From Cyclobacteriaceae bacterium (GTDB lineage: Bacteria > Bacteroidota > Bacteroidia > Cytophagales > Cyclobacteriaceae), in NCBI GenBank assembly GCA_027067135.1, contig JAMOMJ010000456.1:1-60584 (forward strand): a DNA stretch of 60,584 bases, read 5' to 3'. How positions within the stretch are numbered: position 1 is the first letter of the stretch; each line of letters opens with the position of its first letter. The notes under the pieces were generated by a model that was given only the letters and a program-made list of their open reading frames with translations, was not told the origin of the DNA and made no database searches. Position numbers and translations under genes: made by a program. Shown here piece after piece: positions 10,308 to 32,828 of the stretch.

Positions 10308-10691
10308 ATGAGTTATCAAAAATTCAGCATGACTTTAGGCTTCCTTATCTGGCTGGTGGCAACATTGCTCTTCAGGTTTTATGGAGCAGATTTCTTTTTA
10401 ACAGAGGATGCCATGGTGATGGGTACATTTTATTTTGGCATTATTCCTTTGTTATACTTATTAGTTAATTGGATGTTTAAAAAATACCGATTATCCAAAA
10501 CAGATAGAATACGGAGTGTAGTTTTAATGATACTTCCTGGGATGGCCTTAGACACCTTATGTATTAAATATTATTGGGTAGTATTTCCGGCTTTTTCGCA
10601 AGAAACAGCCGTAACATTAGGTTCCTGGGTAATTTGGGTTAATTTTATTATTTTAATAATTGGACTGCTTTCAAAAGAAAAAGGGGAATGA
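10308..10691 (+). CDS. Small 4-TM membrane protein (possibly DUF5367-type)
   Basis: 127 aa with four hydrophobic segments. Its last ~51 codons are duplicated as a fragment at 32613-32768. Confidence 0.6.
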   Translation: MSYQKFSMTLGFLIWLVATLLFRFYGADFFLTEDAMVMGTFYFGIIPLLYLLVNWMFKKYRLSKTDRIRSVVLMILPGMALDTLCIKYYWVVFPAFSQETAVTLGSWVIWVNFIILIIGLLSKEKGE

Positions 10692-10751
10692 CGGCAAACA
10701 ATTAGAGGCTAATGCCTTCTAAAACTTACACCTCCCTCAATATTTTAGCAG
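10536..10751. repeat. Left copy of a 216-bp direct repeat (pairs with 32613-32828)
   Basis: Hand alignment is gap-free with about 19 mismatches (~91% identity). It contains the 3' end of gene 10308-10691, a spacer and an antisense copy of the last 8 codons plus stop of galT (10726-10751). Confidence 0.85.
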
Positions 10752-10817
10752 AAAAAAAGTAACTATCTGATTAATTTTCAGATACTTGAACATATAGCCT
10801 TTCTGTTTGTATACTAC

Positions 10818-10836
10818 TAACCTGAGTTCGGGATAA
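10818..10836 (+). repeat. Half-copy of palindromic element (TAACCTGAGTTCGGGATAA)
   Basis: 19 nt identical to 31201-31219 and to one arm of the complete palindrome at 59765-59828. Confidence 0.7.
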
Positions 10837-10966
10837 TAGTTAAACATGTTAAAACCAGAACTCAAACAAGAGGAGAAAACAGAAGCGGCCTCCCCTACTG
10901 AATTACCCTTCTTTTGAAGGAAATCGCTGGTTCCAACTCTCAAGAAAGCAGAATTGGTAAAGAGGA

Positions 10967-13900
10967 TTATTTTGAAACAACTATCCTTTTTGAGATTCTT
11001 TTGTCACTTAATACTATACCTATATAATAAATCCCATTGGGATAATTTCTAAAGTCCAAAACAAAGCTCTGTTTACTATTTTTATTAGTTTTAATAAAAA
11101 TAGTTTTCCCGTAAGCATTATATATCTTAATGAATTTTACCTGCTTAAATGATGCACCTACATTGAGATATACCTTCTCATTTGTTGGATTTGGATATAT
11201 GGCAATTGTATTATCGCCTTCTCTTTTGTTGATTCCTGTAATTAAAGGAGCGTCCAAAAGAGATATAGCTTCTTCTGGAGTTAATGCGTAATCATATATT
11301 AATACTTCATCAATTAAACCATTATAATTAAAGTCATTATTATCATCAGCTAGCATTCTTCCCATAAGAAAATCATAGGAAGTACTTTTAATGCCTCCCT
11401 CCAACTTGGTAGAACTATCCAGTTTCCCATTGATATATAAAAGGACATAAGTTCTGTCATAGGATGCCACAATATGGTAGAACTGACCATTTTTCAACTC
11501 ATCGCTACTATCCACATCTTTAATTGATAGTGAAGTGTTGAGTGTCCATCTCACTTTTCCCGAATTTATAGAAAGCTTCCACCTATTTTGCCAACTACCA
11601 TGAGATAGAATAAAAGACTCATTACCAATTGATAAATTATCAGGCCTAATCCAGCAGCTAACTGTTATAGCATCAGAAAAGTTTAATGTGTTATCATTAT
11701 CTACTTTGATAAAATCGTTTTGTCCATCAAAAAGATAAGCATTATTAGCATTTCCATCTAAATCTTCGGTTGCAGTAGCTCCAAACACTTGCCCATGCAG
11801 GTTATTCCCACTATAATCATCAGCATTCCCAGAAAAGGAATAATAAGCAATGAGGCTACCTGTATTAGGTATTGAATAGTCTTTAACAAGAAACTTTAAT
11901 TTCCCCTCAACTGTTCCACCCATCCCGTCTTCTACTAGTACGCTCACTTTATATATCCCTTCTGCAGATGGACTTTCCCATATTACTTTATCACCCTCAC
12001 CCGCAATAGTCCCATCACTTACAGACCAGTTATAAAGCAAATTATCACCGTCTATATCTTCTGCTACACAAGAAATTTCAACCTCTTCTTGCGGATTAAT
12101 ATTATTTATAGCTGAAAACATATCTATGATGATGGGTGCAGAATTAATATGATCCACTGCTTCAATACTTATAGACTTACTAGTTTTATTAAGTTGCTCG
12201 TCTGATACAGTGACAACTATTTGATAATTTCCAATAGCAGGTGCAGTCCACGAAATCGTTTCGGTTACTTCTGTAAGTTGCTCTCCATTTACAGTCCAGC
12301 TATAGGATAAAACTTCTCCTTCTTTATCGGTAGCTGTTGCATAAATAGTAGCTACATCCCCAATTTCGAGTAATGGATTAGTAACAGCTAAGCTTTTTAT
12401 TCTTGGAGGGCTATTATAAGTTTGGCTCGTTTGCATATAATCTACCACAATATCATTGATAAGAAACTTATTAAGGTCATAACTAACAGTTCCTCCGGAA
12501 GGAACTACAACCAGTTCAACTGCTTTATCTGCACCAATATCAAAATTGGTGTCTCCAGTTACATCCTGAGCTATAAAAGTTTCTGTTAATGCATCATACA
12601 AGTCCACTGGGGCTGATCCAACATCTATAATTACTGTTTTAATGCTAGAATAAGGGTTGTAATACAAAAAAGTGGGATAAGCATCTTCCTTATAAAAATC
12701 GGTTTTTAACAGATCGAGCTGGAGTATTTTTTCCACATTCGTAGTTTTAATAATGCCACCAAAAATACCTACAGATGATGAGCCATAGAGGGCAAGGTTT
12801 GTATTTGCCCAGCCTGCAGCTACTGCATCACCCGTAGAAAATGGCCCCAGGTTCCCATTCATTTTTTCCCTTAAACCCTCATAGCCAATATATCCATTAG
12901 GGTCATGCATATTTGACCAATTGGAAGCATCTTGTTGTTCAGCAGGTAAAAACCCTGGATAAAACAAACGTGATGCATTGGCTAAGTTGAGCATCCATTT
13001 ACCTATGGCTCGGGCAAAACGCTTATCGTACCTAACCATAGGCACAAGCGCACCGGCATGCTGAAAGCCATTCATTAAAAAAGCATAATCATTGCCCTGA
13101 TCGTTGGCTTCACCAATAAGGCCGAAAGCTTCCACTCCATTCCAATTTCCAATAATTGCACCCCAACCTCTTAATTCTCCCCTATCAAATGTCCAATTTA
13201 GCATCTTTTCAATATCATAAGATGTGCCAATTTGAGCATTCATTTTGGCAGCCACATATATACCGTAGGGTAATTGAAGTTCATACGAAGGATTTGAACT
13301 AAGATTGTTTAAAAACTCCATGCTCCATTCCGCCCCTTTTAAATAGCTGGAGTCTCCTGTTTCGATATAAGCGTTATACAATAGCCAGGCTATGCCTCCG
13401 GCAGCTTCGGGTTCTTTTACACCAGTAGTCAAAGGTGTCATAGTTGCCAGATTCCAGGCCCGATAGTTCATAAATGGCACTTCCCAGGGCGTATCAGTTC
13501 CTCCCATGGTTTTTACGGCTGTTAACCATTGGTTGGCAACAGATGTAAACTGAAAATCAGCATCGCCTATGCCCGGGTATAAATCATTGAGCTGATAAAA
13601 ATAGATATTGGGCATAATGTCGTACCACCAATCATTCCCACTATTTCCATTATAATTATTGAGATAGACGTTCTCTTCGGCTCTTTTATTAAAAAAATCC
13701 TGTGCCATCAGCACCCAGTTTATGTTGTTTTGGTCACCTTTATCTACTCCGGCAAGCGTAGCTCCTATTAGCGAAGGAAGCACATTAATGGCTTCTCCGC
13801 TTTTAGCAAAAAATGTGCCTACATAGGAGTCTAACCCAAAATTTTTATTTTGAGGATAATTGACTCCTTCATCACTCATAAAAACAAGTGGCAGGTAATC

Positions 13901-14083
13901 TCCAGTTTTATCAATATCAAATACCAGGCTATCATACCCTATTGTTACACGCTCCCAATTTCGCATAAAATAGGGCGAAGGGGTGTTGGGCATTTGTTCA
14001 ATACGATTTATGGTAACTTGATTTACCTGCGCATTAACAAACCCATTAAACAAAAGTATAAATGCCAGTAAGGATTTTTTCAT
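10967..14083 (-). CDS. T9SS-secreted multidomain protein: unassigned N-terminal ~540-aa domain, two PKD/Ig-like repeats, LamG (concanavalin-like) domain, Por/T9SS C-terminal sorting domain
   Basis: Signal peptide MKKSLLAFILLFNGFVNAQ (the track ORF starts 15 codons upstream at 14128). The N-terminal domain is paralogous to ORF 19969-21690 (INRIEQMPNTPSPYFMRNWE vs IKRVEGMPNQPTPYKMLDWK; DWWYDIMPNIY vs DWWYDVFPNVL; IGKWMLNLANASRLFYP vs IGKWTLNTANATRLCYP). The PKD-like repeats show as YSWTVNG... and YNWSVSDG... The LamG-type block is YYSFSGNADDYSGNNLHGQ...IDEVLIYDYALT. The C-terminus is IYPNPTNEKVYLNV...ISKRIVVSK. Confidence 0.7.
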   Translation of the reverse strand: MKKSLLAFILLFNGFVNAQVNQVTINRIEQMPNTPSPYFMRNWERVTIGYDSLVFDIDKTGDYLPLVFMSDEGVNYPQNKNFGLDSYVGTFFAKSGEAINVLPSLIGATLAGVDKGDQNNINWVLMAQDFFNKRAEENVYLNNYNGNSGNDWWYDIMPNIYFYQLNDLYPGIGDADFQFTSVANQWLTAVKTMGGTDTPWEVPFMNYRAWNLATMTPLTTGVKEPEAAGGIAWLLYNAYIETGDSSYLKGAEWSMEFLNNLSSNPSYELQLPYGIYVAAKMNAQIGTSYDIEKMLNWTFDRGELRGWGAIIGNWNGVEAFGLIGEANDQGNDYAFLMNGFQHAGALVPMVRYDKRFARAIGKWMLNLANASRLFYPGFLPAEQQDASNWSNMHDPNGYIGYEGLREKMNGNLGPFSTGDAVAAGWANTNLALYGSSSVGIFGGIIKTTNVEKILQLDLLKTDFYKEDAYPTFLYYNPYSSIKTVIIDVGSAPVDLYDALTETFIAQDVTGDTNFDIGADKAVELVVVPSGGTVSYDLNKFLINDIVVDYMQTSQTYNSPPRIKSLAVTNPLLEIGDVATIYATATDKEGEVLSYSWTVNGEQLTEVTETISWTAPAIGNYQIVVTVSDEQLNKTSKSISIEAVDHINSAPIIIDMFSAINNINPQEEVEISCVAEDIDGDNLLYNWSVSDGTIAGEGDKVIWESPSAEGIYKVSVLVEDGMGGTVEGKLKFLVKDYSIPNTGSLIAYYSFSGNADDYSGNNLHGQVFGATATEDLDGNANNAYLFDGQNDFIKVDNDNTLNFSDAITVSCWIRPDNLSIGNESFILSHGSWQNRWKLSINSGKVRWTLNTSLSIKDVDSSDELKNGQFYHIVASYDRTYVLLYINGKLDSSTKLEGGIKSTSYDFLMGRMLADDNNDFNYNGLIDEVLIYDYALTPEEAISLLDAPLITGINKREGDNTIAIYPNPTNEKVYLNVGASFKQVKFIKIYNAYGKTIFIKTNKNSKQSFVLDFRNYPNGIYYIGIVLSDKRISKRIVVSK

Positions 14084-14232
14084 ACTAAAAATAAATGTAG
14101 ATTTCTTGTTATAAGAAGACTTAAACAATTTTTAGAAAGTTTAAAGCTTTCTGAAAATTAACTACATAAAAAAGACGATAGGATAAACCTACCGCCCTTT
14201 TAACCAAGCAATAATCAATCTAATTAACTATA

Positions 14233-15288
14233 TTATTTTTCATCATCATAAATACTTTTTACCTGCGGCCCTGTAAGAACCGTATTATAAATTCTTAGCT
14301 CATCCATTGAGCCATTAAAATAGCCTCCCCACGCTTCAGGGATAATTTGATCATTGTCATAATTATCAGGCGTATCGGCATATTTACTTGAACCTACCCC
14401 AATAGCAAGGTTATGACCTGTTACATTAACCAAATCACCAGGAAGCGAGGCTACCCTATTTGTTTCAAAACCATCAATATAAAACACCATTTCACCACCA
14501 CCAAAACTTACGGCAAGGTGATACCATTGGCCAGTATTTAAAACAGGGTCAGTATCTTTATCATAAATACCCTCAGATGAAGCAGCAGTAAAAAAGGCTT
14601 TATTGGCTGACTGTAACTGAAACTTATACCCATTCCAAGAATGTAACCCTAAAAAACGATTACTTTCTCTTATTTCTGCTGCATTTACCCATAATGCAAT
14701 TGTTATTTGAGCTGGGTTAATTGCTGCATTATAAGGCACTTCAACCCATGCTCCGCTATTAAACGAGATAGCTTTACCTGCATTGCCATTACGGTCTTCT
14801 GCCCATACAGGATCTCCTGCACCCCAATTTGTACGACCTGTATTAAATGTGCCATCAAAACCATTACCCGAAGCGTCAGCAGCCGAAGTGCCACTACCCT
14901 CATTGAATTTCCAGTAACCCACAAGCGTGGCGGGGTCAATAGCTGCGATTTTCTTTGTTTCATAAAGATCCATAGCTGCTTGTAATGCTGTAACTGTGTT
15001 ATCAACGGCAGTTTGATCTGATGTTTTAGAAGCTACTACAACTTTTGCATCGCCAATTACTTTCTGTAGCTCTACTTTAGAACCAATCTCATAATCACCC
15101 ACATCGGCACCTTCTGAAGTTGTAGAAATAAGGGTTTCAGCTTCGGAAATTTTAGCATTTAATGCTGCAAAATCTGCTGGTTCTACTACTGGTACAGGAT
15201 CATCTTTACAACCACTTATCAAGGCCATACTTGCTATGGCAACAAAAAGCAGTAATGAACCAACTTTTGTAAATTTTAACTTTCTCAT
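14233..15288 (-). CDS. Surface lipoprotein with helical N-terminal region and LamG/concanavalin-like domain (SGBP-like, downstream of SusD)
   Basis: Lipobox LISGC; WKFNEGSGTSAADASGNGFDG...MDELRIYNTVLT is typical of Laminin_G_3-type domains. Its position directly after susD is typical of surface glycan-binding proteins. I prefer the internal ATG (MRKLKF...). Confidence 0.65.
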   Translation of the reverse strand: MRKLKFTKVGSLLLFVAIASMALISGCKDDPVPVVEPADFAALNAKISEAETLISTTSEGADVGDYEIGSKVELQKVIGDAKVVVASKTSDQTAVDNTVTALQAAMDLYETKKIAAIDPATLVGYWKFNEGSGTSAADASGNGFDGTFNTGRTNWGAGDPVWAEDRNGNAGKAISFNSGAWVEVPYNAAINPAQITIALWVNAAEIRESNRFLGLHSWNGYKFQLQSANKAFFTAASSEGIYDKDTDPVLNTGQWYHLAVSFGGGEMVFYIDGFETNRVASLPGDLVNVTGHNLAIGVGSSKYADTPDNYDNDQIIPEAWGGYFNGSMDELRIYNTVLTGPQVKSIYDDEK

Positions 15289-15318
15289 AATTTTAAAGGT
15301 TTGTTTATACATAAATTA

Positions 15319-16827
15319 TTAATTTGAAATTGCATTATTTGTGTCCACTTCACTTTGAGGAATAGGGAAATACCTGTGAGTGGCATAGTTGAAATTAGTA
15401 TCGGATAGTGCTGCCTCCGCTGTAGTTGTACCATACCTCATCAGGTCGTAAAACCGATGAAATTCAAAGCCCAGCTCTACTCTGCGCTCATGCCGGATAG
15501 CTGTTCTTAAAGTACTCTGATTTGTACTGATTACATCGGGTAATAAACCAGCTGGAATTGCTCCAAAACCGGGTAGGGTTTCATCAAACATGTAGCTTTC
15601 GCGTGCTCTCTTTCTTACTTCATTTAATGGAATTAAGGCTTCTGCACCACTCCCAAGCTCATTAAGTGCTTCTGCTTTAATTAAAAGTACTTCGGCATAG
15701 CGCATAAACGTGTAGTTTAAATCTCCATCTCCTTTAGTTCCAGTGCCTATTTCGGATAATGGTTGAATATGCTTTTTCTGTAAATAGCCGGTTTCCGGAG
15801 ACCAAGCCGGGTCAAAATCTTCACCATTAATCCATTTTTGGTTTTCTCTTCCAACCGTATAATCCAGCCGTGGGTCAATAACTCCTCCTCCAGTTACTTC
15901 AAACTCATCAACAAAATTTTGGGTAGGTGCATTAAAGAAATAGCCATTTTCAACTTGTGGTGAAAACCACTGGTTTAAATTACTACCCAAAAAAGGAACC
16001 TGGCCTGTTAAATGCTGAATTTCAAATATGGATTCAACATTATTTTCATATGAAAACTCGAAATTATTTCTATGAAGAGGCATAAGCGAGTACCCTGATT
16101 GCTCCAGGCTCGTAATTGCATCTAAACAAGGTTGCCATTTTTCCTGAAACAAAAGAGCTTTGGCAAGCAATCCCAAAGCGGCACCTTTGGTTGCCCTACC
16201 CGTTTCAGAACTTTTATACGAAACAGGCAATACCTGCGAAGCTTCCGTTAGGTCTTGTTCTATCTGTAAGTAAATGTCGGCAACAGACGATACCGGAACA
16301 TGTAAATCATCGGATGAAAATGCAGGTTGTGTTTTTAAAGGAATTTCTCCAAAAATATTTACCATATGAAAATAGAAGTAAGCCCTTAAAAATTTGGCTT
16401 CGCCAACTATTCGCTGCTTTAACCCATTATCCATTTCTATATCAGGCACATAGTAAATTACTTTGTTAGCTCGTGTAATGCCTTCGTAATAATGTTTCCA
16501 AATCGACTCTATAAATCCATTATCCGGATTAATGGTAAACTCATCAATAAATCCCATATCGCTTTGGTCACCAGGATTTCCGCCTTTTTTAGCATCATCA
16601 GATGCCACATCTCCAAATACCCATAAATTGTTATTAATATTTTTAAACGCAGTAATTTCATAAGTTGCGTTAATTGCAAATACAGCATGCTCTTTAGTTT
16701 GATAAAAAGAGCTATTGCTATATACACCCTGCAATTCTGTATCCAGAAAATCTTTGCACCCTGTGCCGATAACAGTTAAAAATAGAACTGTACAAAGGGT
16801 TGTTATTTTAAAATTTATCTTTTTCAT
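15319..16827 (-). CDS. SusD/RagB family nutrient-binding outer membrane lipoprotein
   Basis: 502 aa with lipobox (GTGCKDFLD). It has a TPR-like SusD pattern (RAYFYFHMVNIFGEIPL, YAEVLLIKAEALNELG, ERRVELGFEFHRFYDLMR) and follows a SusC gene. Confidence 0.9.
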   Translation of the reverse strand: MKKINFKITTLCTVLFLTVIGTGCKDFLDTELQGVYSNSSFYQTKEHAVFAINATYEITAFKNINNNLWVFGDVASDDAKKGGNPGDQSDMGFIDEFTINPDNGFIESIWKHYYEGITRANKVIYYVPDIEMDNGLKQRIVGEAKFLRAYFYFHMVNIFGEIPLKTQPAFSSDDLHVPVSSVADIYLQIEQDLTEASQVLPVSYKSSETGRATKGAALGLLAKALLFQEKWQPCLDAITSLEQSGYSLMPLHRNNFEFSYENNVESIFEIQHLTGQVPFLGSNLNQWFSPQVENGYFFNAPTQNFVDEFEVTGGGVIDPRLDYTVGRENQKWINGEDFDPAWSPETGYLQKKHIQPLSEIGTGTKGDGDLNYTFMRYAEVLLIKAEALNELGSGAEALIPLNEVRKRARESYMFDETLPGFGAIPAGLLPDVISTNQSTLRTAIRHERRVELGFEFHRFYDLMRYGTTTAEAALSDTNFNYATHRYFPIPQSEVDTNNAISN

Positions 16828-16830
16828 AAT

Positions 16831-19800
16831 TTAAAATGTTACCTGTAATCCTAAATTAAAAGAAACTGCCGTTGGGTATGTTCCCCACTCTATACCGGCT
16901 GCTTTATCCCCTTCAGCAGTTGAATTATCGCTGGTGGTCATTTCCGGGTCAAGCCCTGGATATTTTGTAAGCGTAAACAGATTGTTTGCCAAAAAGTAAA
17001 CCCTGCACTTTTGTAAGAACAACCTATCCAACAAGTTTTTAGGTAACTGATAGCCAATTTGAAGGGTTTTTAATCTGGTATAAGAACCATCTTCTAAAAA
17101 CCGGGTAGAAGGTTTTGTATTATTGGGTTTGGCTTTCCACGATGGTCTAGGTTGTGTATTACTGCTACCTTCCCCTGTCCATCGTTCATCATAATACCTT
17201 TTTGTAAGGTTAAACGGCCTGTAAAATCCTTCGATATCTGTGGCAACCTGATAATAAATTTGCTGGCCATAGGCACCCTGCACAAAAACGGTAAAATCAA
17301 AATTTTTATAATTTATCCCCAGGTTTGCTCCCAGTATCATATCAGGGATGGACTTACCTACAAAAGTTCTGTCGTTTGCATCTATAATACCATCACCATT
17401 TTGGTCTTTATATTTTATATCTCCCGGTTGAATTTGGCTACTGCTTCCCTGAATAGCGTGGGTAATAATATCGGTTGAGTTCTGGAAGATTCCTTCCATT
17501 TCGTAGAGGTAAAATGAGCCAATAGGCTGTCCTTGCACGGTTCTAGTAGCCCAAACACCATTATCAATTCGGGCATTTTGATACACACCATCAAGTTCCA
17601 GCACCTCATTTTTTATCGTGGCTACATTGGCACTAATCGAGTAATTCAGATTATCAGATATTTGCCCATTATGCTCTAATTCAAACTCAATACCTGTGTT
17701 TAGCACTTTCCCATCATTTACCCAAGACGGAGTTGCATATCCTGCCGAAGAAGGATTTGTATTAATCATCAACTGATCTCTTGTTACTTTTCGGTAATAA
17801 TCCAGTGCCACTATTAGCTTGCCCGAATAAATACTTATATCTGCACCTATATCCAATTGGGTACTTGTTTCCCATTTTATATCGGCATTACCCAATGCAG
17901 TAGTTGTATATCCCCCTTGTGCAATGTCTCCTAATGGGTATTCAAAACCGGGGTTAATTTTTTCTAAATAGGCAAAATTGTCGATGGCTTGATTTCCATT
18001 AGCTCCATAACCAATCCTTAATTTTAATTGATCTATCATATTGCTATTAGCAAGAAATGCTTCCTTATCAATTCTCCAACCTAGTGATACCGAAGAAAAT
18101 GTACCCCATCTGTTTTCCTCTACAAACCGGGTAGAGCCATCCCTTCGTATAATACCTGTTAATAAGTATTTTCCTTTAAAATCGTAATTAACTCTGGCAA
18201 AATAAGAAAGCAGCCTGTACTCCCAAATAGCTTCAGAAGTACTTATGATTCCTTGTCCGTTTCCCAGGTTAATTAGGTTTAAATTCTGATCTGCAAAATC
18301 CCTTTCGGTGGTTACAGTAGATTCACTGTTAACTGCTATGGCTTCTGCTCCTATAATTGAAGAAATAGTATGACTGCCAAATTCGTAATCGAAGTTAATC
18401 AGGTTAGTCCACGACCAATTAAAGTTTGACCCGTTATATACCGATAATGAATTGGGGTTATTAATCCTGTCATTGGTTCCCCATGTTTTATTAAATCTCC
18501 TGCGCTTATAATTATTATTGTCTATTCCAAATTTTGTACTAAAACTAAGGTTTTTAGCAAAATCGATTTTGGCATTAATATCTCCTAAAATCTGAACATC
18601 TTTATTTACATTATAGGTATTATTGGCAAGGCCTACGGGGCTATACCCATCTCCAAAAAACTCCGGGTTATTAGGTAAATCAACAAATTCACCATTTTTA
18701 TCGTAAATTGGTATGGCCGGTGACCTAAAAAAAGCATATCTGATAACACTACCTCCATTGCCTCCAAATCCATCACCGGAGCTGCCAATAATGTTGGTGG
18801 TGGATTGTGCCACATTTAGGTTTACTCCAATATTAAACCATTCTTTTGCTTGTGTACTTACACTTACTTTACCTGTTAATCGCTGATAATCACTTCCAAT
18901 TATTATTCCTTCCTGTCCAAAATAACTACCGGAGATACTATAATTGGTTTTTTCGTTTCCTCCACTGACCCCCAGGTAATAATTTTGAAGTATCGCCTTT
19001 CTAAAAATTTCATCCAGATGACTTATATCAGGCAATGTATCTGCCATAGCTTCGGTTATTTTATTCCTCTGCAATGCAAGAGGAACACCCACATTATCGT
19101 AATCGGCAGCTTCGTTATATACTTCTATGTATTCGTCTTTATTGGTCATTGGAGTTAAACGCCCAACCTGTTGAATACCAACACTTGAGTTGAAAGTGAT
19201 TTGAGTTCCGCCTGAACGGGAACCTTTTTTTGTGGTGATTAGTACCACACCATTATTAGCCCTTGACCCATAAATAGCTGCTGAAGCCGCATCTTTTAAT
19301 ACACTAATTGATTCAATATCAGCGGTAGAAAGGTAATTCATAGCGTTTTCGGTGGGTACACCATCAACAATGTAAAGTGGTGCGTTTCCACTGTTTATTG
19401 AGCCTACGCCCCTTATCCTTACTGCTACGCCAGCACCAGGTGCCCCTGTAGTTTGTGTAACATTTACTCCCGCAGCCAATCCTTGCATAGCTTGTGTAAC
19501 ACCCGGTGTTGGAATCCTGATTAAATCTTCGGGCTTAACAGAAGCCACTGCACCCGTTACATCCGCTTTTTTCTGTACCCCATAACCTGTAACTATAATT
19601 TCATCCAGAATCTCTACATCGGCTTCCATAGATACATTAATTGAGGTTTGGCTACCTACTAAAATTTCAATCGCTTTATAGCCTACATACGAGAATATAA
19701 GAACATCAGAACTGCTTACATTACTTAATGTATAAGCCCCATCCATATCGGTAACTGTACCGTTTTGGGTTCCTTTAATTTGAATAGTAACCCCCGGCAA

Positions 19801-24236: not shown

Positions 24237-24698
24237 CTACAATATGCTGTCCTGACAAGGACTCACATCCTTTTCCAGTAGTTTCGTGATATCGCTTATC
24301 ACATTTTCCAGCTCTTCGGCAGCCCTTAATATCCTTTTGTTAACATCGTCCTTTTCGTCATTACTGATAGCATCTATATGTAATAACTTGGCTAATCCTA
24401 ATAATCGTGCAAGCGGGGCTCTTACTTTATGTGAATTTGAAAAGGCATATCCATCCAGTTTATTATGTAGGGTATGAATGGTTTTAGCTCGCTCTATAGC
24501 TGAACCTTTAAGCGATTTCAAAAGCCTGTTCATATTTTCATTTGTGTTTTCTAGTTCTTTTATTTTGTTTAGCAGGCAATTCATGTATTCCTTAAGAAGC
24601 AAAACATCGGGGCTTTGCAAAAATCTCTTAGTCTCATCGCCATTATATTTACTATTGTTTTTCCTTGAAATCTGCATTGGTAAACTAATTACTAACAA
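24237..24698 (-). CDS. Orphan histidine-kinase dimerisation/phosphoacceptor (DHp/HisKA)-only protein; no ATPase domain
   Basis: 153 aa. It has a coiled-coil-like N-terminus and an H-box (YAFSNSHKVRAPLARLLGL). The ORF ends ~55 aa after the H-box with no HATPase_c motifs (N, G1, G2). Confidence 0.55.
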   Translation of the reverse strand: MLVISLPMQISRKNNSKYNGDETKRFLQSPDVLLLKEYMNCLLNKIKELENTNENMNRLLKSLKGSAIERAKTIHTLHNKLDGYAFSNSHKVRAPLARLLGLAKLLHIDAISNDEKDDVNKRILRAAEELENVISDITKLLEKDVSPCQDSIL

Positions 24699-24824
24699 CT
24701 GTCACGCAAAAATTTACAAAACCTGCTCAAAACACAGATTCTCCCCAACCTGCCCTAAAATTGGAGCCAAGAAAAGCCTTTTACGTAAAATCGCTTAAAC
24801 TACTCTTGTAATATCCAAAACTTG

Positions 24825-24909
24825 CCTGCTATTTAAGTACTCTATAGTACCAAATGTGTTGCCAATACAGCTATGGTAATAAGGTGTACACATTGGCACT
24901 ATTGGTATC
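24825..24909. repeat. Copy B of ~85-bp direct repeat, upstream of the DHp-only gene
   Basis: See 24148-24232. It has the same orientation and sits 677 bp away. Confidence 0.75.
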
Positions 24910-24961
24910 GTATTCATTTAAAGGAATACGGTTACTTAGTAAAATAATATTTTAATGTATA

Positions 24962-26869
24962 ATGGAAGATTTTTTTAGACTGGGAGCACAAGTATTTATC
25001 GAACCCGGACAGGATAAAGAAAGGGTAGAAAAATGGTTTGGCTTATTGGCAGAACATGGTATGTCAACTTCCAGAATCAGGTTATTTGAAGATCATATTA
25101 GAGAGGAAGGTCAATGGAATTATGAATTATATGATTTTGCTTTTGATATGGCAGCCAAATACAATATTAAGTTACTGGTTACACTTTTCCCGTCAGACAA
25201 CTCTGTGGGCGGTTTTAAATTTCCACGAGATGAGAAACACCTGAATGAAATTGCTGACTATATTAAAAATGTAGTCAGGCATTTTAAGAACCACCCTGCA
25301 ATGGATTGTTGGGTTTTGCAAAATGAACCGGGAGTGGAAGAACGAACCAAAGCAGGTTTGGCAGAAGAAAAGTATAAGGCGTGGCTATCTGATAAGAAAA
25401 AAAACAGTGCACCTGCCCAAGAGTATATTAGCTGGGAATTATTTTTTAGAGATTATACAACCTGGTATTTAAAATGGATTGGAGAACAAATTAAACTATA
25501 TGATACCCAAAACCTTACCCATATAAATAACCACCAATTATTCAATAACCTGTCGCAATACGATTTTAATAATTGGATGCCGTTTTTGTCAACACTGGGA
25601 GTTTCTATTCATGCCTCCTGGCATTTAAGGGCTTTTGATAGGAAACAATATACTATGGCAATAGCGGCACATTGCGACATAATAAGGCAGGCAAGCCTGC
25701 CAAAGCCATTTTGGGTAACAGAACTGCAAGGAGGAAATAATATTTTTAGTGGGTTTGAACCTATGAGTGTATATGCTAAAGACATTGCCCAATGGGTTTG
25801 GACGAGTGTAATATGCGGAGCAGAAAGGGTGATTTTTTGGACACTTAACCCACGAGGCAAAGGGCACGAAACCGGTGAGTGGGGTATGATAACCTACCAG
25901 GATGAGCCTACTGAACGGCTATTAATGTCGAAAAAAATTGCAGATGTAATAAATGAAAACAAGCATTTTTTTAAGAAAGCACGGCCATTAGAACCGGCCG
26001 TAACCTTACTTTATTCCATCGAATCTATGTTAACACTTGAAAAAGTAATGTCAAACGAATTTGATGACGGGTATAAAGGCAGGAAACAAGGCGCACATAT
26101 TTTATCATTACTGGCCTATTACGAAACTTTATTAGAACTGGGAGTTCCTTGCGAGATTAAGGATATTAATGAATTTAAATGGGCAGAGGTTTCTTTAGGG
26201 CATACTGTAATTTTAGCAAATGTAGTATCTGTATTTTCGGGTATGACAGATGAAATTTGCACATTTGTTGAAAACGGCAACAAATTAATTATGACCGGAA
26301 TGACCGGTTTTTTTGATGAAAATATGCAAAACGTATATCAACAAAAATCTCCATTTAAGGAATTAACAGGAGCCGATTTAGCGGGGTTTGAGTTTGTTGG
26401 CGAATACGGTGAAATTGAAATAGATGGCTTTAAGCTGCCTGTTCACATGTTAAAAGGAGGGTTGAAAAATTATACAGGAAAAATTATTAGTAAATGCAAA
26501 GAAAAAGTAACGGGTGTAAGAAATACGTATGGCAATGGCACAGTAACCTGGATACCCTCTTTAATTGGCTTAGGTAGCTGGCAAAATAGTAATGAGGCAT
26601 TGGCCGACTTTTTACAAAACGAGCTTAGCAAAAGCTTTGACTGCCTTCCGTTCCTATTCGAAAAACATTTACCTAAGGTAATAATGAAAGTTCTTGAATT
26701 TGAAAAGGAGTATGTTTCTATGATTATTAATACCAATAATTGTGCAGTTGAGGTGCCATTATGTGTGCATACCAATAATAACCCGGTGGTTATTTTTGGA
26801 GAACCGGAGCAAATAGGAAATAAAATTATTGTAAATTCAGGCGATACAGTAATTATTAAGTGGGGTTAA
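24962..26869 (+). CDS. GH42-like (clan GH-A) glycoside hydrolase, cytoplasmic
   Basis: 635 aa with no signal peptide. WVLQNEPG (acid/base NE context) and PFWVTELQGG (nucleophile context) resemble GH42 beta-galactosidase motifs. A central segment (VTLLYSIES...) sits where the GH42 trimerisation domain lies. The family call is from motif memory. Confidence 0.55.
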   Translation: MEDFFRLGAQVFIEPGQDKERVEKWFGLLAEHGMSTSRIRLFEDHIREEGQWNYELYDFAFDMAAKYNIKLLVTLFPSDNSVGGFKFPRDEKHLNEIADYIKNVVRHFKNHPAMDCWVLQNEPGVEERTKAGLAEEKYKAWLSDKKKNSAPAQEYISWELFFRDYTTWYLKWIGEQIKLYDTQNLTHINNHQLFNNLSQYDFNNWMPFLSTLGVSIHASWHLRAFDRKQYTMAIAAHCDIIRQASLPKPFWVTELQGGNNIFSGFEPMSVYAKDIAQWVWTSVICGAERVIFWTLNPRGKGHETGEWGMITYQDEPTERLLMSKKIADVINENKHFFKKARPLEPAVTLLYSIESMLTLEKVMSNEFDDGYKGRKQGAHILSLLAYYETLLELGVPCEIKDINEFKWAEVSLGHTVILANVVSVFSGMTDEICTFVENGNKLIMTGMTGFFDENMQNVYQQKSPFKELTGADLAGFEFVGEYGEIEIDGFKLPVHMLKGGLKNYTGKIISKCKEKVTGVRNTYGNGTVTWIPSLIGLGSWQNSNEALADFLQNELSKSFDCLPFLFEKHLPKVIMKVLEFEKEYVSMIINTNNCAVEVPLCVHTNNNPVVIFGEPEQIGNKIIVNSGDTVIIKWG

Positions 26870-26870
26870 T

Positions 26871-29800
26871 ATGAGGCTAAAAGATGTAAATATTAGTATG
26901 CTAATATCTTTACTACATGCATTAAGGACATATTGCCTTACACCTAAATCCATCTTTATAGGGTTTTTACTTCTTTTTCTCCTTATAACTTCAGCAGATA
27001 CACATGCACAATATTGGAAATTAAAGAAAATTGACAACAATCAGGGGCTGTCAAATAGTGCTGTTACATCTATTTTTTTAGATAGCAAACAATATATGTG
27101 GTTTGGAACCTGGGATGGCCTAAACCGGTACGATGGCAAGCATGTATCTGTTTTTAAGCCCGATGGCTCTGTAAAAACAAGTATTGGCAATAATATTATC
27201 CGTGAAATATTCGAGGATAAAAATAATAACATGTGGGTAGTTACCGATAAAAACATCAACCAATACAAGCGTGATACCGAACAGTTTCAGGTGTTTTTAA
27301 ATTCTGATGATTATTCACCGGGTAAAGAGCGTATCATTAGAAGCAGCATAAGCAGAGACTCAATACTTTGGTGTAGCATTTATGACGTTGGAGTTGCTTA
27401 TTACTCAGAACAAAACAATGTGTTTGAGCAAATTAAAAGTACTAAAAACATTGATTCATTTTTAAAAAGAATAATTGGCATTAAGGCTTTTTCGAAACAG
27501 CGGCTTGCTTTATTAACCGAAACAGGCAACCTTGTTACCCTTATAAAAGAAGATGAGTGGACTCCCGTTAGAATAGATTCGTTAGCAGCAATTTTTGATG
27601 TAATACCCGGCCAACATTGGTTTATCGACTTTAAAGGTAAGCCTATGCTGCTTATGTCAATTGAAAGTGGAGGGTTGCTATATATTAACCTGGATAATGG
27701 ATTATCTAAAACAATAGAAGCAGGCAATTCTGATTTTATAATTACCGAGATTTCTAAAAGCAAAAAAGAAGGCTTTCTGTGGTTAGGAACTGATAACGGG
27801 AAAATTTTAAAACTGTTTTTAAATAATAAAACCTCTATTAAAAACCTTGATTACCTGTTTCCGGAGTTGGCAAATGAAAAAGTAAAAATTTTAAAAATTT
27901 ATGAAGCAAGCCCTCATTTATTATGGATTGGCACCGATGGCAATGGTATTTTAGAATATACCACACAAGGAACGCCTTTTTCCTCCATCAAAAAAGGTGA
28001 TATTGCCAAAGGTGAATTAAGCCATAGTATAGTTAGGGCTATTTATGAAGAGCCAACGGGAGAAATTATTGTTGGTACCAGGGGAAGCGGGTTAAATATA
28101 ATAGATAAAGACCTGTTGAAAACCAGGCTAATTACAACCAGCGAAGGGCTTTCGAACAATGCTGTGCTATCTATTGAAAAAGACAAACACAATAACTACT
28201 GGATTGGCCTTGATGGTGAGGGTATAGATTTTTTAGAAAAAGAAACAGGCAATATCCTGCACTTTCCCAATGATTTTATAAATGATGTAAACCTCACATT
28301 TAAATCGGTTTATGCTATTTGCATTGATTCTTACGAAAATATTTGGCTGGGCACCAGCGGGTATGGTGTTATAAAATTAAGTGTGTCAAAAAAAGGAAAC
28401 GGAAAATACGTTCTTGATAGTTTCAAACAATTTCGAAGCACATCAACAACAAATCATTTAAAAAGCAATATTGTGTATTCCATTGTGGAGGATCGTCCTA
28501 ATTTTTTATGGGTTGGAAGCCGTGGTGGGGGTGTGCAGCTACTTAATACGGTTACAAACGAGTTTTCTAATTTACCCAATAAAATTGACAGAGACGTTAT
28601 ATCGCTCTATAAAGCTGCATCGAATAAAGAATTGTGGGTTGGCACAAGCAACGGACTTTACAGGGTTGCCTTACAAAATAAGAACTATACTTTTAATTTG
28701 TACAACGAGGGTAACGGGTTGCCTAATAATACAATACACGCTATTCAGGAAGACAATGTTGGAAATATATGGGTAAGTACAAATAGAGGCTTATCTTATT
28801 GGAACAGGGAGCTTGACCAATTTAAAAACTTTAATAAAAACGATGGGCTTGCCGGAAATGAATACACTGACGGAGCTTCCTTTTTTGGGAAAAACTCAAA
28901 AAAAATATTCTTTGGGGGAATCAACGGCCTCACAATTATTAGACCCGAAAAAGTTAAAAATTCTGATAACCACCCCAGGTTGGCGTTGCAGGAGTTTAAA
29001 CTTTTCAACAAGCTTATAACCCCCGGAAATAAAAACGGGTTGCTTAAAAAGCATATTGACGATACCGATTCGCTGGTTTTTGAGAGCAACCAGAATTTTT
29101 TTAGTTTAAACTTTGCTGCACTTAACTATGTAAACAACGAAAAATCTGAATATGCATACTATTTAGAAGGCTTTGATAAGGAATGGATTCAGGCAGGAGC
29201 TCAACGTACAGCCTATTTTACCAATGTTCCTCCCGGAGAATATACCCTTAAATTAAAATGCACCAATCAGGATGGCATCTGGAACACAGCGTACAGGTCT
29301 ATTTCTATTATTATAAAGCCTCCGGTTTGGAAAACATTCGGAGCCTATATTATTTATGCAATTATTGGTTTACTGTTAGTTGTATTGGTTTACCTGTTTA
29401 TAAAAAGAAGAAACAGGATGCAACAGGAACTATATTTTGCACAGTTGGAAAAACGAAATATAGAGGAAATCAATAATTATAAACTTCGCTTTTTTACCAA
29501 TGTTTCACACGAATTCAGAACCCCGTTATCGCTTATACTAATCCCCGCCAATAAGCTTTTTGAAAAAAAGGAAAAATATCCGGAATTAAAATCATCGTTT
29601 GAAAGCATATTTTATAATACAAACAGGTTATTAAAACTAATTGGTGAATTAATTGAGTTTAGAAAAGCTGTTTCTGATCAGGTAAACCTAGCCGTAAGTA
29701 AAGGAAATATTTCTTTATTTGTAGAACAAATTACAACCGGTTTTTCTAATTATGCCGAAGCACATAGTGTAAGTATTGTGTTCGAAAACGACTTGGAAAG

Positions 29801-31058
29801 CGAAGAAGTATGGTTTGACCACGACAAAGTAAAAACCATTGTGCTTAACCTAATATCAAATGCCATAAAGTACAACCGACCCAACGGGGTAGTTACCGTA
29901 ACCGTTACGGTAGCTCGAAATGAGGCATTAATTAAAGTAGAAGATACAGGTATTGGCATACCCGAAAACTTTTTGGATAATATTTTTCAACGGTTTTACA
30001 ACCTTTCTTCAGTAAGCAAATCAGGAATAGATGCCTCTAAAAGTAGTGGAATAGGCCTGGCACTTACAAAAAGCCTTGTAGAATCGCATAAAGGCAGTAT
30101 TAAGGTAAGTAGCAAACAGGGCGAAGGCAGTATTTTCCTTATCCGTTTTCCGGTAGATAAAGCCTCTTATGCCGGATTTTTGGTGGATAGGATACTTGAG
30201 CCAGACCCCTTGGCTATTGAAGAAAATATTGATGCAGAATTTGTAAACTTTAATTCTGTTAACACAGCCAGCAATGATTTAGCACATATTACTGCAAACC
30301 GTTATTGCTTATTAATTGTAGATGATAATATTCAGTTCCGCAATATTGTAAAAGAGATGTTTGCACAACATTACGATATAATTGAAGCTGGAAATGGTGC
30401 AGAAGCCATGGATATTATTAGAGAAAACTCCATAGATTTAATAATAAGCGATGTGCTAATGCCTAAAATAAACGGGTATGAGCTGTGTAAAATAATTAAA
30501 GAAGATATTAACACCTGCCACATTCCGGTAATTCTGTTAACGGCCTTAGGCGAAATTGAAAATCGTATTAAAGGAATAGATATTGGAGCAGACTCATATA
30601 TCCCAAAACCATTTCATCCCAAGCACCTTATTGCAAGGGTAGAAAAACTGATAGAATCGCAGGAGAACATTAGAGAATCGTTAAAAAACGCACCTTGGAA
30701 GCTAGCTGATAATGTAAATGGCCTGGCTCAAAAAGATAAAGCCTGGCTTAACAAAATGATCGTTTTTATTTTGGATAATATGGCGAGCACTCATTTAGAC
30801 TCTAATATGCTAATGAAAGAATTTGCGATGAGTAAAACCCAATTATACCGTAAAGTAAAAGCAATAACCGACTGTACGCCCCATGGGTTTATTAAAAAAT
30901 ACCGGCTAACCAGAGCTGCAGACCTTCTAAAAAACAGTGATAAAACCATATCGGAAGTAGCTTATGAAACAGGGTTTAACAACAGGTCTTACTTTTACCG
31001 AAGCTTTAAAGAAGAGTATAATTGTTCTCCTTCAGAATTTAAAAACAAGGTTTGTTAG
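26871..31058 (+). CDS. Hybrid two-component system regulator (HTCS): periplasmic beta-propeller/Y_Y_Y sensor, HisKA, HATPase, receiver, AraC-type HTH
   Basis: 1395 aa. Repeated propeller motifs are visible (WFGTWDGLNRYDG, WLGTDNGKI, WIGTDGNGI, WVGTSNGLYR, WVSTNRGLSYW), followed by a TM helix. The kinase and receiver parts show as H-box FFTNVSHEFRTPLS, G-box GIGLALTKSLVESHKGSI and receiver LLIVDDN...DLIISDVLMPKINGYE. The AraC HTH is AYETGFNNRSYFYRSFKEEY. The start lies 1 nt after the GH42-like stop. Confidence 0.9.
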   Translation: MRLKDVNISMLISLLHALRTYCLTPKSIFIGFLLLFLLITSADTHAQYWKLKKIDNNQGLSNSAVTSIFLDSKQYMWFGTWDGLNRYDGKHVSVFKPDGSVKTSIGNNIIREIFEDKNNNMWVVTDKNINQYKRDTEQFQVFLNSDDYSPGKERIIRSSISRDSILWCSIYDVGVAYYSEQNNVFEQIKSTKNIDSFLKRIIGIKAFSKQRLALLTETGNLVTLIKEDEWTPVRIDSLAAIFDVIPGQHWFIDFKGKPMLLMSIESGGLLYINLDNGLSKTIEAGNSDFIITEISKSKKEGFLWLGTDNGKILKLFLNNKTSIKNLDYLFPELANEKVKILKIYEASPHLLWIGTDGNGILEYTTQGTPFSSIKKGDIAKGELSHSIVRAIYEEPTGEIIVGTRGSGLNIIDKDLLKTRLITTSEGLSNNAVLSIEKDKHNNYWIGLDGEGIDFLEKETGNILHFPNDFINDVNLTFKSVYAICIDSYENIWLGTSGYGVIKLSVSKKGNGKYVLDSFKQFRSTSTTNHLKSNIVYSIVEDRPNFLWVGSRGGGVQLLNTVTNEFSNLPNKIDRDVISLYKAASNKELWVGTSNGLYRVALQNKNYTFNLYNEGNGLPNNTIHAIQEDNVGNIWVSTNRGLSYWNRELDQFKNFNKNDGLAGNEYTDGASFFGKNSKKIFFGGINGLTIIRPEKVKNSDNHPRLALQEFKLFNKLITPGNKNGLLKKHIDDTDSLVFESNQNFFSLNFAALNYVNNEKSEYAYYLEGFDKEWIQAGAQRTAYFTNVPPGEYTLKLKCTNQDGIWNTAYRSISIIIKPPVWKTFGAYIIYAIIGLLLVVLVYLFIKRRNRMQQELYFAQLEKRNIEEINNYKLRFFTNVSHEFRTPLSLILIPANKLFEKKEKYPELKSSFESIFYNTNRLLKLIGELIEFRKAVSDQVNLAVSKGNISLFVEQITTGFSNYAEAHSVSIVFENDLESEEVWFDHDKVKTIVLNLISNAIKYNRPNGVVTVTVTVARNEALIKVEDTGIGIPENFLDNIFQRFYNLSSVSKSGIDASKSSGIGLALTKSLVESHKGSIKVSSKQGEGSIFLIRFPVDKASYAGFLVDRILEPDPLAIEENIDAEFVNFNSVNTASNDLAHITANRYCLLIVDDNIQFRNIVKEMFAQHYDIIEAGNGAEAMDIIRENSIDLIISDVLMPKINGYELCKIIKEDINTCHIPVILLTALGEIENRIKGIDIGADSYIPKPFHPKHLIARVEKLIESQENIRESLKNAPWKLADNVNGLAQKDKAWLNKMIVFILDNMASTHLDSNMLMKEFAMSKTQLYRKVKAITDCTPHGFIKKYRLTRAADLLKNSDKTISEVAYETGFNNRSYFYRSFKEEYNCSPSEFKNKVC

Positions 31059-31198
31059 TCTGTTTGCAACCTTCGGCTAAACCTCACGCCTGTCGAGGAA
31101 AACCCAAGCGTAGCAAATCACATATTTTACTCATTGCATTAAATAAGTATAACAGGCAGGTATTAGCTTTTCTTTCCTGTAATGAAATCCCTTTTGAT

Positions 31199-31224
31199 AA
31201 TAACCTGAGTTCGGGATAAGGAAT
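31199..31224 (+). repeat. Half-copy of palindromic element (AATAACCTGAGTTCGGGATAAGGAAT)
   Basis: 26 nt identical to the reverse complement of 59803-59828 (the right arm of the complete palindrome). It has the same orientation as the 19-nt copy at 10818. Confidence 0.75.
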
Positions 31225-31236
31225 TGTTGTAGCCAG

Positions 31237-32055
31237 TTATTTTTTATCAATCGTTCTTCTTGCTCTATTAATTATTTTTGCAGTTTCTTTAGTCGGTGAT
31301 TCTTTCTGCCATTTTTCGCATAATTCAATCACAAAATTTGGCTTAGATTTACTTGCATCGTTTAACCAATTTCCAACACTGTCTTGAACATACTTTGATT
31401 CATCAGAATTCAAATTTTCCAAAATAGGTAATGCAATTTCAGGGTTTTCTTTTAGCCGTTCAATATGTTTACACCAAACACCTCTTGGTCTTGTAGATTC
31501 AGTTGTAAATCGTCTTATGTTTTCATTTTCGTTTTTTGTCCAATCACTTAAAATTTCGATAGATTTTTCTAAATTTCCATCAATTTCAGGTCGTAAAGCC
31601 ATCCACACAACTTCTCGCACTCCAAAATGATTGTCGGCAATAAGTTTTTCAGATTGATTTAGTTTTTCGGTTATGTTTAAATTCTCATTTAAAGACTTAA
31701 GATATGGTGCGAAACAACGAATAGAGTCGGACAAGTGAGAGCTCAATTTGTCAAAGATTGAGTTAAACACTTTGTTATCAGAATATAGTTCATAAAGTAT
31801 TGAGCCTACTAACTTGATTGTGTTCATCGTAGAAGGCTTTTTTTGAGCTTTTACTTTTTCGGAAATTAACTTTGTATTCTCTTCTGAAATTCCAATTTCT
31901 CCAAAGTTTGTTTCGATGAGCTTTAAGTGGTCAATCGCTAACCATTCCGTTAAATTTACCGTTTCGATTTTTCCTACATTCAGCAATTCCAAGACCTCTT
32001 TCGGAATGTCTTGGGCTTTTCTTGCTCCTTTTCGGTCAGTGATTTCTTTTTTCAT
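31237..32055 (-). CDS. DNA alkylation repair protein (AlkD-like HEAT-repeat family)
   Basis: 272 aa and helical-repeat rich. Motifs FGVREVVWMALRP, IRRFTTESTRPRG and YVQDSVGNWLNDASK resemble the 'DNA alkylation repair enzyme' family. Confidence 0.6.
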   Translation of the reverse strand: MKKEITDRKGARKAQDIPKEVLELLNVGKIETVNLTEWLAIDHLKLIETNFGEIGISEENTKLISEKVKAQKKPSTMNTIKLVGSILYELYSDNKVFNSIFDKLSSHLSDSIRCFAPYLKSLNENLNITEKLNQSEKLIADNHFGVREVVWMALRPEIDGNLEKSIEILSDWTKNENENIRRFTTESTRPRGVWCKHIERLKENPEIALPILENLNSDESKYVQDSVGNWLNDASKSKPNFVIELCEKWQKESPTKETAKIINRARRTIDKK

Positions 32056-32144
32056 TTAGGTGCTCTTTAATATTGACTAACGTCAAATTTTGTTTCTGAT
32101 TTTCAGCATGCTACGGATTCTCCTTTTAACACTCATATTTGCTC

Positions 32145-32400
32145 TTTTCATTGCTTTGACATTAGCTATTGAAATCAATTTGAAAAGGAAGAAATTGATG
32201 CCTTTTCCTATCAATTTCTGTTCCCCAAAAATCTCCCCAATAGTTGCTATCGCTCTACAATAAACTTCGGTAGAGAACTTAAAAGTACAAAATAACCCAC
32301 GGAGGCAAACTTTTTGATTTGCTAGCCGCGCAGCAGACATGGCAAATCAGAATAACACTTAGTCTGGCCGGAAAGGCACGGAAAATTAAAAATTTGACGG
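32145..32400. ncRNA. Candidate structured RNA / structured repeat, copy 1 (paired with 53124-53386)
   Basis: A ~256-nt segment collinear with 53124-53386. It has conserved blocks plus stems that differ by compensatory changes (details in findings). The overlapping track ORF is read in a different frame from its counterpart in copy 2. Strand undetermined. Confidence 0.5.
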
Positions 32401-32612
32401 GGCTAGCTATAAGAAATAAACTTAGTATTTAACCACTGAAACCCTATTGAGCACAGAATGTTAGCAGTATTTATGATAGTCTGAAACTTAAAGGAATAAT
32501 ATATGCAAAAGCCGAAGAATATTACAACTCTCCAGTTTTTGCTTTATTCTGAGTTTTTCAGCAGACCTTAAATAGTTTTTACATTAAACTCTCAGTAGTT
32601 ATATAGCATTAA

Positions 32613-32768
32613 CCCGGAATGGCCTTAGACACCTTATGTATTAAATATTATTGGGTAGTGTTTCCAGCTTTTTCGCAAGAAACAGCCGTAACATTAGGCT
32701 CTTGGGTAATTGGGAGCAATTTTATAGTTTTAATAATCGGACTGCTTTTAAAAGAAAAGTGGGAATAA
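32613..32768 (+). pseudogene. 5'-truncated fragment of the small membrane-protein gene (copy of 10536-10691)
   Basis: Reads PGMALDTLCIKYYWVVFPAFSQETAVTLGSWVIGSNFIVLIIGLLLKEKWE*. The homologous sequence in the intact gene is ...WVIWVNFIILIIGLLSKEKGE*. No start codon or N-terminal two thirds is present. Confidence 0.8.
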
Positions 32769-32828
32769 CGGCAAATAATTAGAGGTTAATGCCTTCTAAA
32801 ACTTACACCTCCCTCAATATTTTAGCAG
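32613..32828. repeat. Right copy of the 216-bp direct repeat (pairs with 10536-10751)
   Basis: See 10536-10751. It contains the genuine 3' end of galT. Confidence 0.85.

Follow-up and report, generated by a model that had tools for sequence, protein, structure and literature searches.

A 21.9-kb polysaccharide utilization segment between diverged direct copies of a DUF5367/galT junction in a Cyclobacteriaceae contig

We analyzed a 60,584-bp stretch of DNA from a Cyclobacteriaceae bacterium (GenBank assembly GCA_027067135.1, contig JAMOMJ010000456.1; hereafter the window) and found that a 21.9-kb segment carrying a polysaccharide utilization locus (PUL) lies between two direct, diverged copies of a single gene junction. 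At this junction the gene of a small membrane protein of the DUF5367 family meets, tail to tail, the galT end of a gal operon. The two copies differ in the manner of alleles from separate genomes, and divergence from a related sequence changes abruptly at the repeat edge. We put at close to an even chance, though a little short of it, the reading that the segment arrived by insertion-duplication, that is, by homologous recombination with a diverged junction allele on incoming, probably circular, DNA. The features on which this reading rests are as follows.

10308..10691 (+), intact DUF5367 small membrane-protein gene, 127 aa (Pfam PF17329, E 1e-18)
10515..10535 (partner 32592-32612), possible 21-nt leftward extension of the repeat (alignment, six-frame translation, tblastn)
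10536..10751, left repeat copy: DUF5367 codons 77-127 plus stop, 34-nt spacer, 26-nt galT 3' stub (MAFFT, repeat finder, base count)
10726..10751 (-), galT 3' stub (stop plus 7 codons plus 2 nt), same sequence as the true galT end (base count)
32613..32828, right repeat copy: DUF5367 3' stub, spacer, true galT 3' end (MAFFT, repeat finder, base count)
32613..32768 (+), DUF5367 3' fragment, codons 77-127 plus stop
32803..33825 (-), intact galT, 340 aa (Pfam annotation)
33826..33971, galK-galT spacer, 146 nt
33972..35078 (-), galK (Pfam annotation)
35211..36884 (-), sodium:solute symporter, the rest of the gal operon (Pfam annotation)

The duplicated junction

Positions 10536-10751 and 32613-32828 form a direct repeat of 216 nt that aligned without gaps and with 19 mismatches (15 transitions and 4 transversions by direct base count), an identity of 91.2%. 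A MAFFT alignment with 100-nt flanks, a repeat finder (family D1) and the direct base count agreed on this extent, and the hand alignment of the preliminary description, an ungapped repeat with about 19 mismatches, proved exact in all three. The edges of the repeat were sharp, with identity dropping to 15-45% in the 20-100 nt beyond either of them. The pair was also the longest repeat that the repeat finder detected in the window, the runner-up being 100 nt long. The mismatches were distributed unevenly: 17 fell in the 156 nt of DUF5367 coding sequence, 2 in the 34-nt spacer and none in the 26-nt galT tail. Two stretches, of 42 nt (10710-10751) and 41 nt (10542-10582), were the longest without a mismatch, and the earlier estimate that the last ~45 nt are identical was essentially right, the terminal run being the one of 42 nt. 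The gene content of both copies was likewise as first described, except that the galT stub consists of the stop codon, 7 codons and 2 nt and not of 8 full codons.

Both copies run in one register from the end of DUF5367 through the spacer to the end of galT. On this sequence evidence, an unbroken junction with DUF5367 and galT converging on each other must have predated the duplication. The convergent ancestral layout put forward in the preliminary description follows directly from the fact that both copies span the whole junction. An in-frame TAA (32610-32612) stands directly before the right DUF5367 stub, which retains an in-frame ATG at 32619 and with it a possible 49-codon open reading frame (ORF). 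The repeat homology probably once began 21 nt further left, where six-frame translation and tblastn gave the peptides SVVLMILPGM in the left copy and SVVI*H*PGM in the right. Within this extension GTAGTT is common to both copies and is followed by a scrambled 12-nt patch; the patch of the right copy equals the reverse complement of the left one at 9 of 12 positions, a post hoc match that we regard as a hint only.

Clustered changes specific to the right copy (codons 110-111, TGGGTT to GGGAGC) form a hairpin, GCTCTTGGGTAATTGGGAGC followed by AATTTTAT, at 32698-32717 (+); the site is terminator-like and the left copy lacks it. A candidate third remnant of the junction in the galK-galT spacer was discarded, the 12-nt match at 33933-33944 being no better than in shuffled sequence. 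A tandem duplication was also rejected as the origin of the pair: what follows the left copy does not recur beyond the right one, and the 5' part of DUF5367 is missing from the right copy. We found no mention of DUF5367 in the literature.

Divergence of the copies and mosaic signals

To compare substitutions we used as a third sequence over the 156 coding nt a metagenome contig of 477 bp, L081 (NCBI GCA_006243105.1), which is 80% identical to window positions 10340-10703. The pairwise numbers of differences and the rates of synonymous (dS) and non-synonymous (dN) substitution were as follows.

Left and right copy: 17 differences, 10 at third positions; dS 0.378, dN 0.052, dN/dS 0.14
L081 and left copy: 19 differences, 8 at third positions; dS 0.32, dN 0.09, dN/dS 0.28
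L081 and right copy: 25 differences, 10 at third positions; dS 0.42, dN 0.118, dN/dS 0.28

The coding changes between the left and right copies comprised 10 synonymous and 6 non-synonymous ones. At synonymous sites the left copy, the right copy and L081 formed a star-like tree, the two copies being as far apart from each other as from the orthologue of another species. A model in which the stub evolved neutrally in place predicts a dN/dS of at least about 0.5-0.6, and under it the probability of 6 or fewer non-synonymous changes among 16 was 0.012-0.029. The right-copy branch taken alone also departed from neutrality (P about 0.01-0.02). These values suggest that most of the divergence arose while both copies were in working genes, i.e. 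in separate genomes, and they make a fresh target-site duplication less likely than recombination with a diverged allele. The earlier view of the repeats as diverged copies and not a fresh target duplication agrees with the synonymous divergence (dS 0.38), the dN/dS and the probability under the in-place model, in this small sample of substitutions.

The divergence also varied along the repeat. Spacer and galT tail together differed at 2 of 60 positions, as against 10 of the 52 third codon positions (Fisher p = 0.012), a pattern that a crossover, a heteroduplex or a conversion tract at the right end would produce. A second discontinuity was seen in the comparison of the window DUF5367 gene with L081. 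Over codons 13-76 the proportion of synonymous differences (pS) was 0.63 and dS was 1.35, and in the repeat part dS was 0.32, a roughly four-fold change. Third-position differences numbered 28 of 64 upstream versus 8 of 52 inside the repeat (p = 0.0012). A maximum chi-square analysis placed the break after position 10512 (permutation p = 0.007), and the extended repeat starts at 10515, which points to a recombination boundary at the left edge of the repeat. Because divergence from L081 jumps at this edge, the junction piece appears to have a history other than that of the rest of the DUF5367 gene, as is expected of an exchange limited to the homologous piece.

The inserted segment and the locus in relatives

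The segment between the copies (10752..32612) is 21,861 bp long and contains the following features.

10967-14128 (-), LamG/PKD protein with a type IX secretion system (T9SS) sorting domain
14233-15312 (-), LamG protein
15319-16827 (-), SusD
16831-19923 (-), SusC
19969-21690 (-), 573-aa ORF without an assigned family
21697-23013 (-), major facilitator superfamily (MFS) transporter
23023-24081 (-), GH130
24962-26869 (+), GH42-like
26871-31058 (+), hybrid two-component regulator
31237-32055 (-), AlkD-like gene
~32100-32440, structured repeat

By Pfam annotation it qualifies as a SusC/SusD PUL, with adjacent SusC and SusD genes, GH130 and GH42-like enzymes and a hybrid two-component system. A Pfam scan of all ORFs of at least 80 aa in 10752-32612 found no integrase, transposase, recombinase, excisionase, or conjugation or mobilisation domain, and the largest intergenic gap, of at most 880 nt, is too small to hide an integrase or transposase gene. 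The empty scan and the small gaps uphold the preliminary description in its remark that no integrase or transposase is visible. Terminal inverted repeats were absent from the ends of the island, where the best inverted match scored 19 against a shuffle mean of 17.7. The segment does not classify as a transposon or insertion sequence (IS), given a duplication of 216 nt (versus 2-15 bp) and the lack of terminal inverted repeats and of a transposase domain. Megablast of 10300-32900 returned no match to plasmids or phages.

GC content was 0.34-0.40 inside the segment and 0.33-0.42 outside it. Tetranucleotide composition of the segment correlated with that of the flanks at r = 0.984, and same-size controls gave 0.969-0.992. 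A compositional contrast between 10752-32612 and the flanks, which the preliminary description had proposed to look for, was therefore not seen. Two lineage-specific repeat families, a 24-nt motif resembling repetitive extragenic palindromic (REP) elements and the structured repeat, occur both inside and outside the segment. Because the composition matches the flanks and the repeat families are common to both, the source of the segment may be the same genome or a close relative, which a route through homology would need; alternatively, the insertion would be old enough for its composition to have equilibrated.

Four copies of the REP-like motif TAACCTGAGTTCGGGATAAGGAAT were located (10818-10840, 31201-31225, 59759-59783 and 59810-59831), two of them inside the island; the copies near 59.8 kb are an inverted pair that forms a long hairpin between convergent genes. 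The structured repeat, ~340 nt long, has two copies, at ~32100-32440 and ~53100-53440, with a conserved stem (TGATTTGC...GCAAATCA) and a variable loop. The copy upstream of the AlkD-like gene sits just within the right edge of the island, and a search of Rfam with this copy, which adjoins the right repeat copy, gave no credible family. A 153-aa ORF (24237-24698, -) with a weak HisKA match lies where the GH130 operon and the GH42-like and regulator genes diverge, flanked by 100-nt direct repeats (24123-24222 and 24810-24909, 82% identical). This ORF was considered as a fragment of the hybrid two-component regulator of the island and rejected, there being no similarity between them.

The AlkD-like protein is 82-89% identical to products of genes in Flavobacteriaceae (e.g. 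Flagellimonas sp. HMM57) and on scattered metagenome contigs (L169-L173). In the three loci that were compared as DNA (L169-L171) the gene is ~86% identical at the nucleotide level and the homology stops at the gene borders. All the contexts are unrelated, and galT reaches only ~60% identity to that family. The AlkD-like gene appears to have spread horizontally on its own. Tracing the right edge of the island through the AlkD-like gene was accordingly abandoned, since unrelated contexts and homology that ends at the gene borders are silent on the origin of the island.

The lineage of the window has been sampled poorly. The nearest species-representative genome was that of Reichenbachiella versicolor (galT 69% identical at the amino acid level), and among 80 galT loci of species-representative genomes none had DUF5367 near galT. 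A search of a 5.8-billion-protein collection returned only three DUF5367 homologues. One of them is L081; the other two (P0003 and P0004) are 46-49% identical and stand in unrelated contexts. No relative closer than ~80-88% nucleotide identity was found. L081 begins to match the 3' end of galK (window 33948-34037, 87.8% identity) ~11 nt past the DUF5367 stop; 60 of 66 nt of this galK end are identical, as are its last 21 residues. Its DUF5367 gene is therefore convergent on galK within ~35 nt, with no PUL between them and no galT. The 24 nt nearest galK (33948-33971) are common to the window spacer and to this DUF5367|galK junction. The 5' end of DUF5367 in L081 (positions 1-110) has a 5-nt indel and in-frame stops, which may reflect a pseudogene, an internal start or errors of a low-coverage contig. 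In L081, the nearest relative with this DUF5367 gene, no PUL separates DUF5367 from the 3' end of the gal operon. This supports the view that the PUL segment of the window is an insertion, and DUF5367 and the gal operon can, as this contig is assembled, be direct neighbours without it.

Two further relatives have other layouts. In L164 (NCBI GCA_024279295.1, 8.3 kb, 77-89% nucleotide identity) symporter, galK and galT are followed by a convergent LacI-family gene, and L084, a 12-kb contig of a JGI metagenome, has the same layout minus precisely galT (galK|LacI). galK and galT overlap in L164 and in L166, and the 146-nt spacer between them is found only in the window. In L164 the homologue of the symporter at 7842-9515 adjoins 46202-49161 in reverse complement, and beyond this comes the gal operon. 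This arrangement implies a putative inversion of ~39.6 kb (~9516-49161) relative to the window, its left end lying ~1 kb from the left repeat. L164 lacks a ~9-kb block of the window (37.1-46.1 kb); there 229 nt separate the flanking GNAT and symporter genes. The predicted empty site, DUF5367|galT-galK-SGLT, for which the preliminary description had proposed a search, was absent from all three relatives: L081 has galK without galT, L164 has galT|LacI and L084 has galK|LacI. From these comparisons the locus is, in our view, a rearrangement hot spot, rearranged in every lineage sampled.

The ~9-kb block is bracketed by an element resembling a miniature inverted-repeat transposable element (MITE) with terminal inverted repeats (AATAGGGTTACCCATTTAA...) at ~37020-37215 and by a partial inverted copy of it at ~46104-46200. 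It encodes a GntP/glycerate-kinase fusion, an AraC regulator, a LolA-like protein, an MMPL transporter and a START-domain protein. In the fusion (37214-38656, -) one 480-aa ORF joins the N-terminal part of a GntP permease to the C-terminal part of a glycerate kinase; it could be a gene fusion or the result of a deletion that joined two genes. In L084 a gene of the YhcG/DUF1016 PD-(D/E)XK nuclease family (215-1132) is inserted between the symporter and galK, a further alteration of this operon that is specific to one lineage.

Origin of the insertion and its meaning

In the sequence of events that we favour, DNA from a related lineage would have brought in the 21.9-kb PUL segment along with another allele of the tail-to-tail junction of DUF5367 and the gal operon. 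This allele would have diverged beforehand, and the segment would have entered the resident junction by recombination between the two. At its simplest, the junction on the chromosome would have undergone one Campbell-type homologous crossover with a circle bearing the PUL and ~216-237 bp of junction sequence. After such a crossover DUF5367 and galT would both be intact, and the stubs would be the last 26 nt of galT at the left and the last 156 nt of DUF5367 at the right. We infer the circular donor, the single crossover, the dependence on RecA, the direction of transfer and the identity of the native copy from this footprint. RecA recombination at 91% identity, with a longest identical run of 42 nt, should be inefficient or rare on account of mismatch-repair barriers. 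For the same reason the preliminary description goes too far in calling the island prone to excision through its repeats.

Several points weigh against recombination with a diverged allele. Neither a true empty site nor a donor was found, and the inefficiency of recombination at 91% identity applies to the insertion itself. How a circle with exactly this piece of the junction first came about is unexplained, and its formation requires two illegitimate joints. L081 is a metagenomic contig of 477 bp that lacks galT, has a frameshifted 5' end and may itself be rearranged or chimeric, and the mosaic evidence depends on this one short contig. The dN/dS argument fails if the 49-codon ORF of the right stub is expressed and under selection, and all the statistics rest on 16-70 substitutions. 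The several other rearrangements nearby make a multi-step history possible.

The copies could instead have been identical at first, if the target was duplicated in place by a staggered break of ~216-237 nt or by a template switch that re-entered 216 nt upstream, the insertion then being old. This we regard as unlikely, if still worth keeping in view, as a single event would yield both illegitimate joints together with the duplication, and the shared GTAGTT with its scrambled or inverted 12-nt patch resembles a template-switch or microhomology scar. The composition and the shared repeats also fit an intragenomic source. Nearly all the non-synonymous changes lie on the right branch (W110G, V111S, S122L and a site at codon 126), which has 11 unique changes as compared to 5 on the left. 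A dN/dS of 0.14 between the copies and a right branch that is not neutral (P about 0.01-0.03) are, however, at odds with decay in place, which would also require that a useless stub of 156 nt persisted without an indel until synonymous divergence equalled a between-species distance. The spacer and galT stub (2 of 60) are far too similar for this when set against the synonymous sites, and the change-point in divergence from L081 at the repeat edge is left unexplained. Independent rearrangements at a hot spot, including inversion, translocation and gain or loss of galT, might also have built the arrangement stepwise, for instance if the gal operon brought a piece of its former neighbour along and the original galT was truncated separately. 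The three relatives all differ from the window downstream of the gal operon (galK|DUF5367 in L081, galK|LacI in L084 and galK-galT|LacI in L164), and the ~39.6-kb inversion, the extra 9-kb block bounded by MITE-like repeats and the unique 146-nt galK-galT spacer are in keeping with such a history. We nevertheless consider it decidedly unlikely, since at least two illegitimate events would have to enclose the same 216-nt junction in register, which is much less parsimonious than one insertion-duplication.

We also considered a remnant of a site-specific integrative element whose integrase acted at a short identical core inside the repeat, which brought along a surrogate for the 3' end of its target and whose integrase and other mobility genes were later deleted. 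The anatomy of the repeat agrees with that of the e14 prophage of E. coli K-12, where icd continues into prophage DNA and icdC, a 3' pseudogene displaced from it, lies at the far end with mostly synonymous differences (PMC13626634). In the window both target genes are intact, a 3' stub is displaced, the differences are biased to synonymous changes and the imperfect repeat has an identical run of 41-42 nt at either end; as with other islands that carry a second copy of a target-gene 3' end, excision would make a chimeric gene. On the other hand, e14 encodes its own integrase and excises site-specifically, whereas the repeat here spans two convergent genes and their spacer, no ORF of the segment has an integrase, excisionase or conjugation domain, and the gaps of at most 880 nt leave no room for one. 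The segment has no plasmid or phage similarity and its content is that of a standard PUL with housekeeping-type genes, so that an origin of this type seems improbable. Least plausible, and in our judgment very improbable, is an assembly artefact in which the contig switches, at k-mers common to both, between strains that occur together, so that the duplication or its divergence would not be real. The window makes up an entire contig of 60,584 bp, the only one on which its DUF5367 protein was seen, which fits a metagenome assembly, and identical runs of 41-42 nt could mislead an assembler working with small k. A strain switch would, however, give one junction and not two complementary, in-register stubs around 21.9 kb, assembly with normal k-mer sizes would tell the copies apart given a longest shared run of 42 nt, and composition is uniform across both joints.

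The footprint adds one more case to a known class of events and introduces no new mechanism. Like Campbell insertion-duplication, the 'pop-in' of a suicide vector, it has direct repeats that represent one contiguous target, intact genes on both sides and no need for a recombinase gene; the copies differ like alleles and divergence shifts at the repeat edge, much as after pop-in/pop-out allelic exchange. Insertion-duplication is known mainly from laboratory constructs and plasmid/IS cointegrates, and in contrast to such constructs the homology here is only ~216-237 bp at 91%, neither a replicon nor a vector backbone is present, and the circle that would have served as donor is hypothetical. An extension of the favoured scheme, which we rate as rather doubtful, is that the PUL and its ~216-237 bp of junction move between related marine Bacteroidota as a cassette devoid of mobility genes, with homologous 'pop-in/pop-out' at the DUF5367/gal junction as the sole means of spread. 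Excision at a different crossover point would then leave allele-swapped scars. This would explain why L081 and both copies are far more alike in the junction piece (dS 0.3-0.4) than in the rest of DUF5367 (dS 1.35), with the break at the repeat edge.

A natural parallel is found in Bacteroides ovatus and B. xylanisolvens, where PULs are exchanged between conserved 'node' genes and homologous recombination with close relatives has been proposed (Pudlo et al. 2022, PMC8845570). As in those cases, the PUL sits precisely between conserved genes and lacks mobile-element functions. The node model, however, calls for a double crossover in the flanking genes, by which DNA is replaced and no duplication is left, whereas the duplicated junction here implies a single crossover or a staggered insertion, and the host has Reichenbachiella versicolor as its nearest named relative and is not a gut Bacteroides. 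Variable PULs in Bacteroidota mostly lie between conserved genes without mobile-element genes, and their arrival is still argued from indirect evidence (PMC8845570). If our interpretation is wrong, the locus would be an old local duplication in a rearrangement hot spot and of local interest only. The locus itself preserves a readable scar, a duplicated and allele-diverged junction that points to homology-driven insertion from a relative, and the scar offers targets of a size suited to PCR: the two joints, the predicted empty site and the circular junction.

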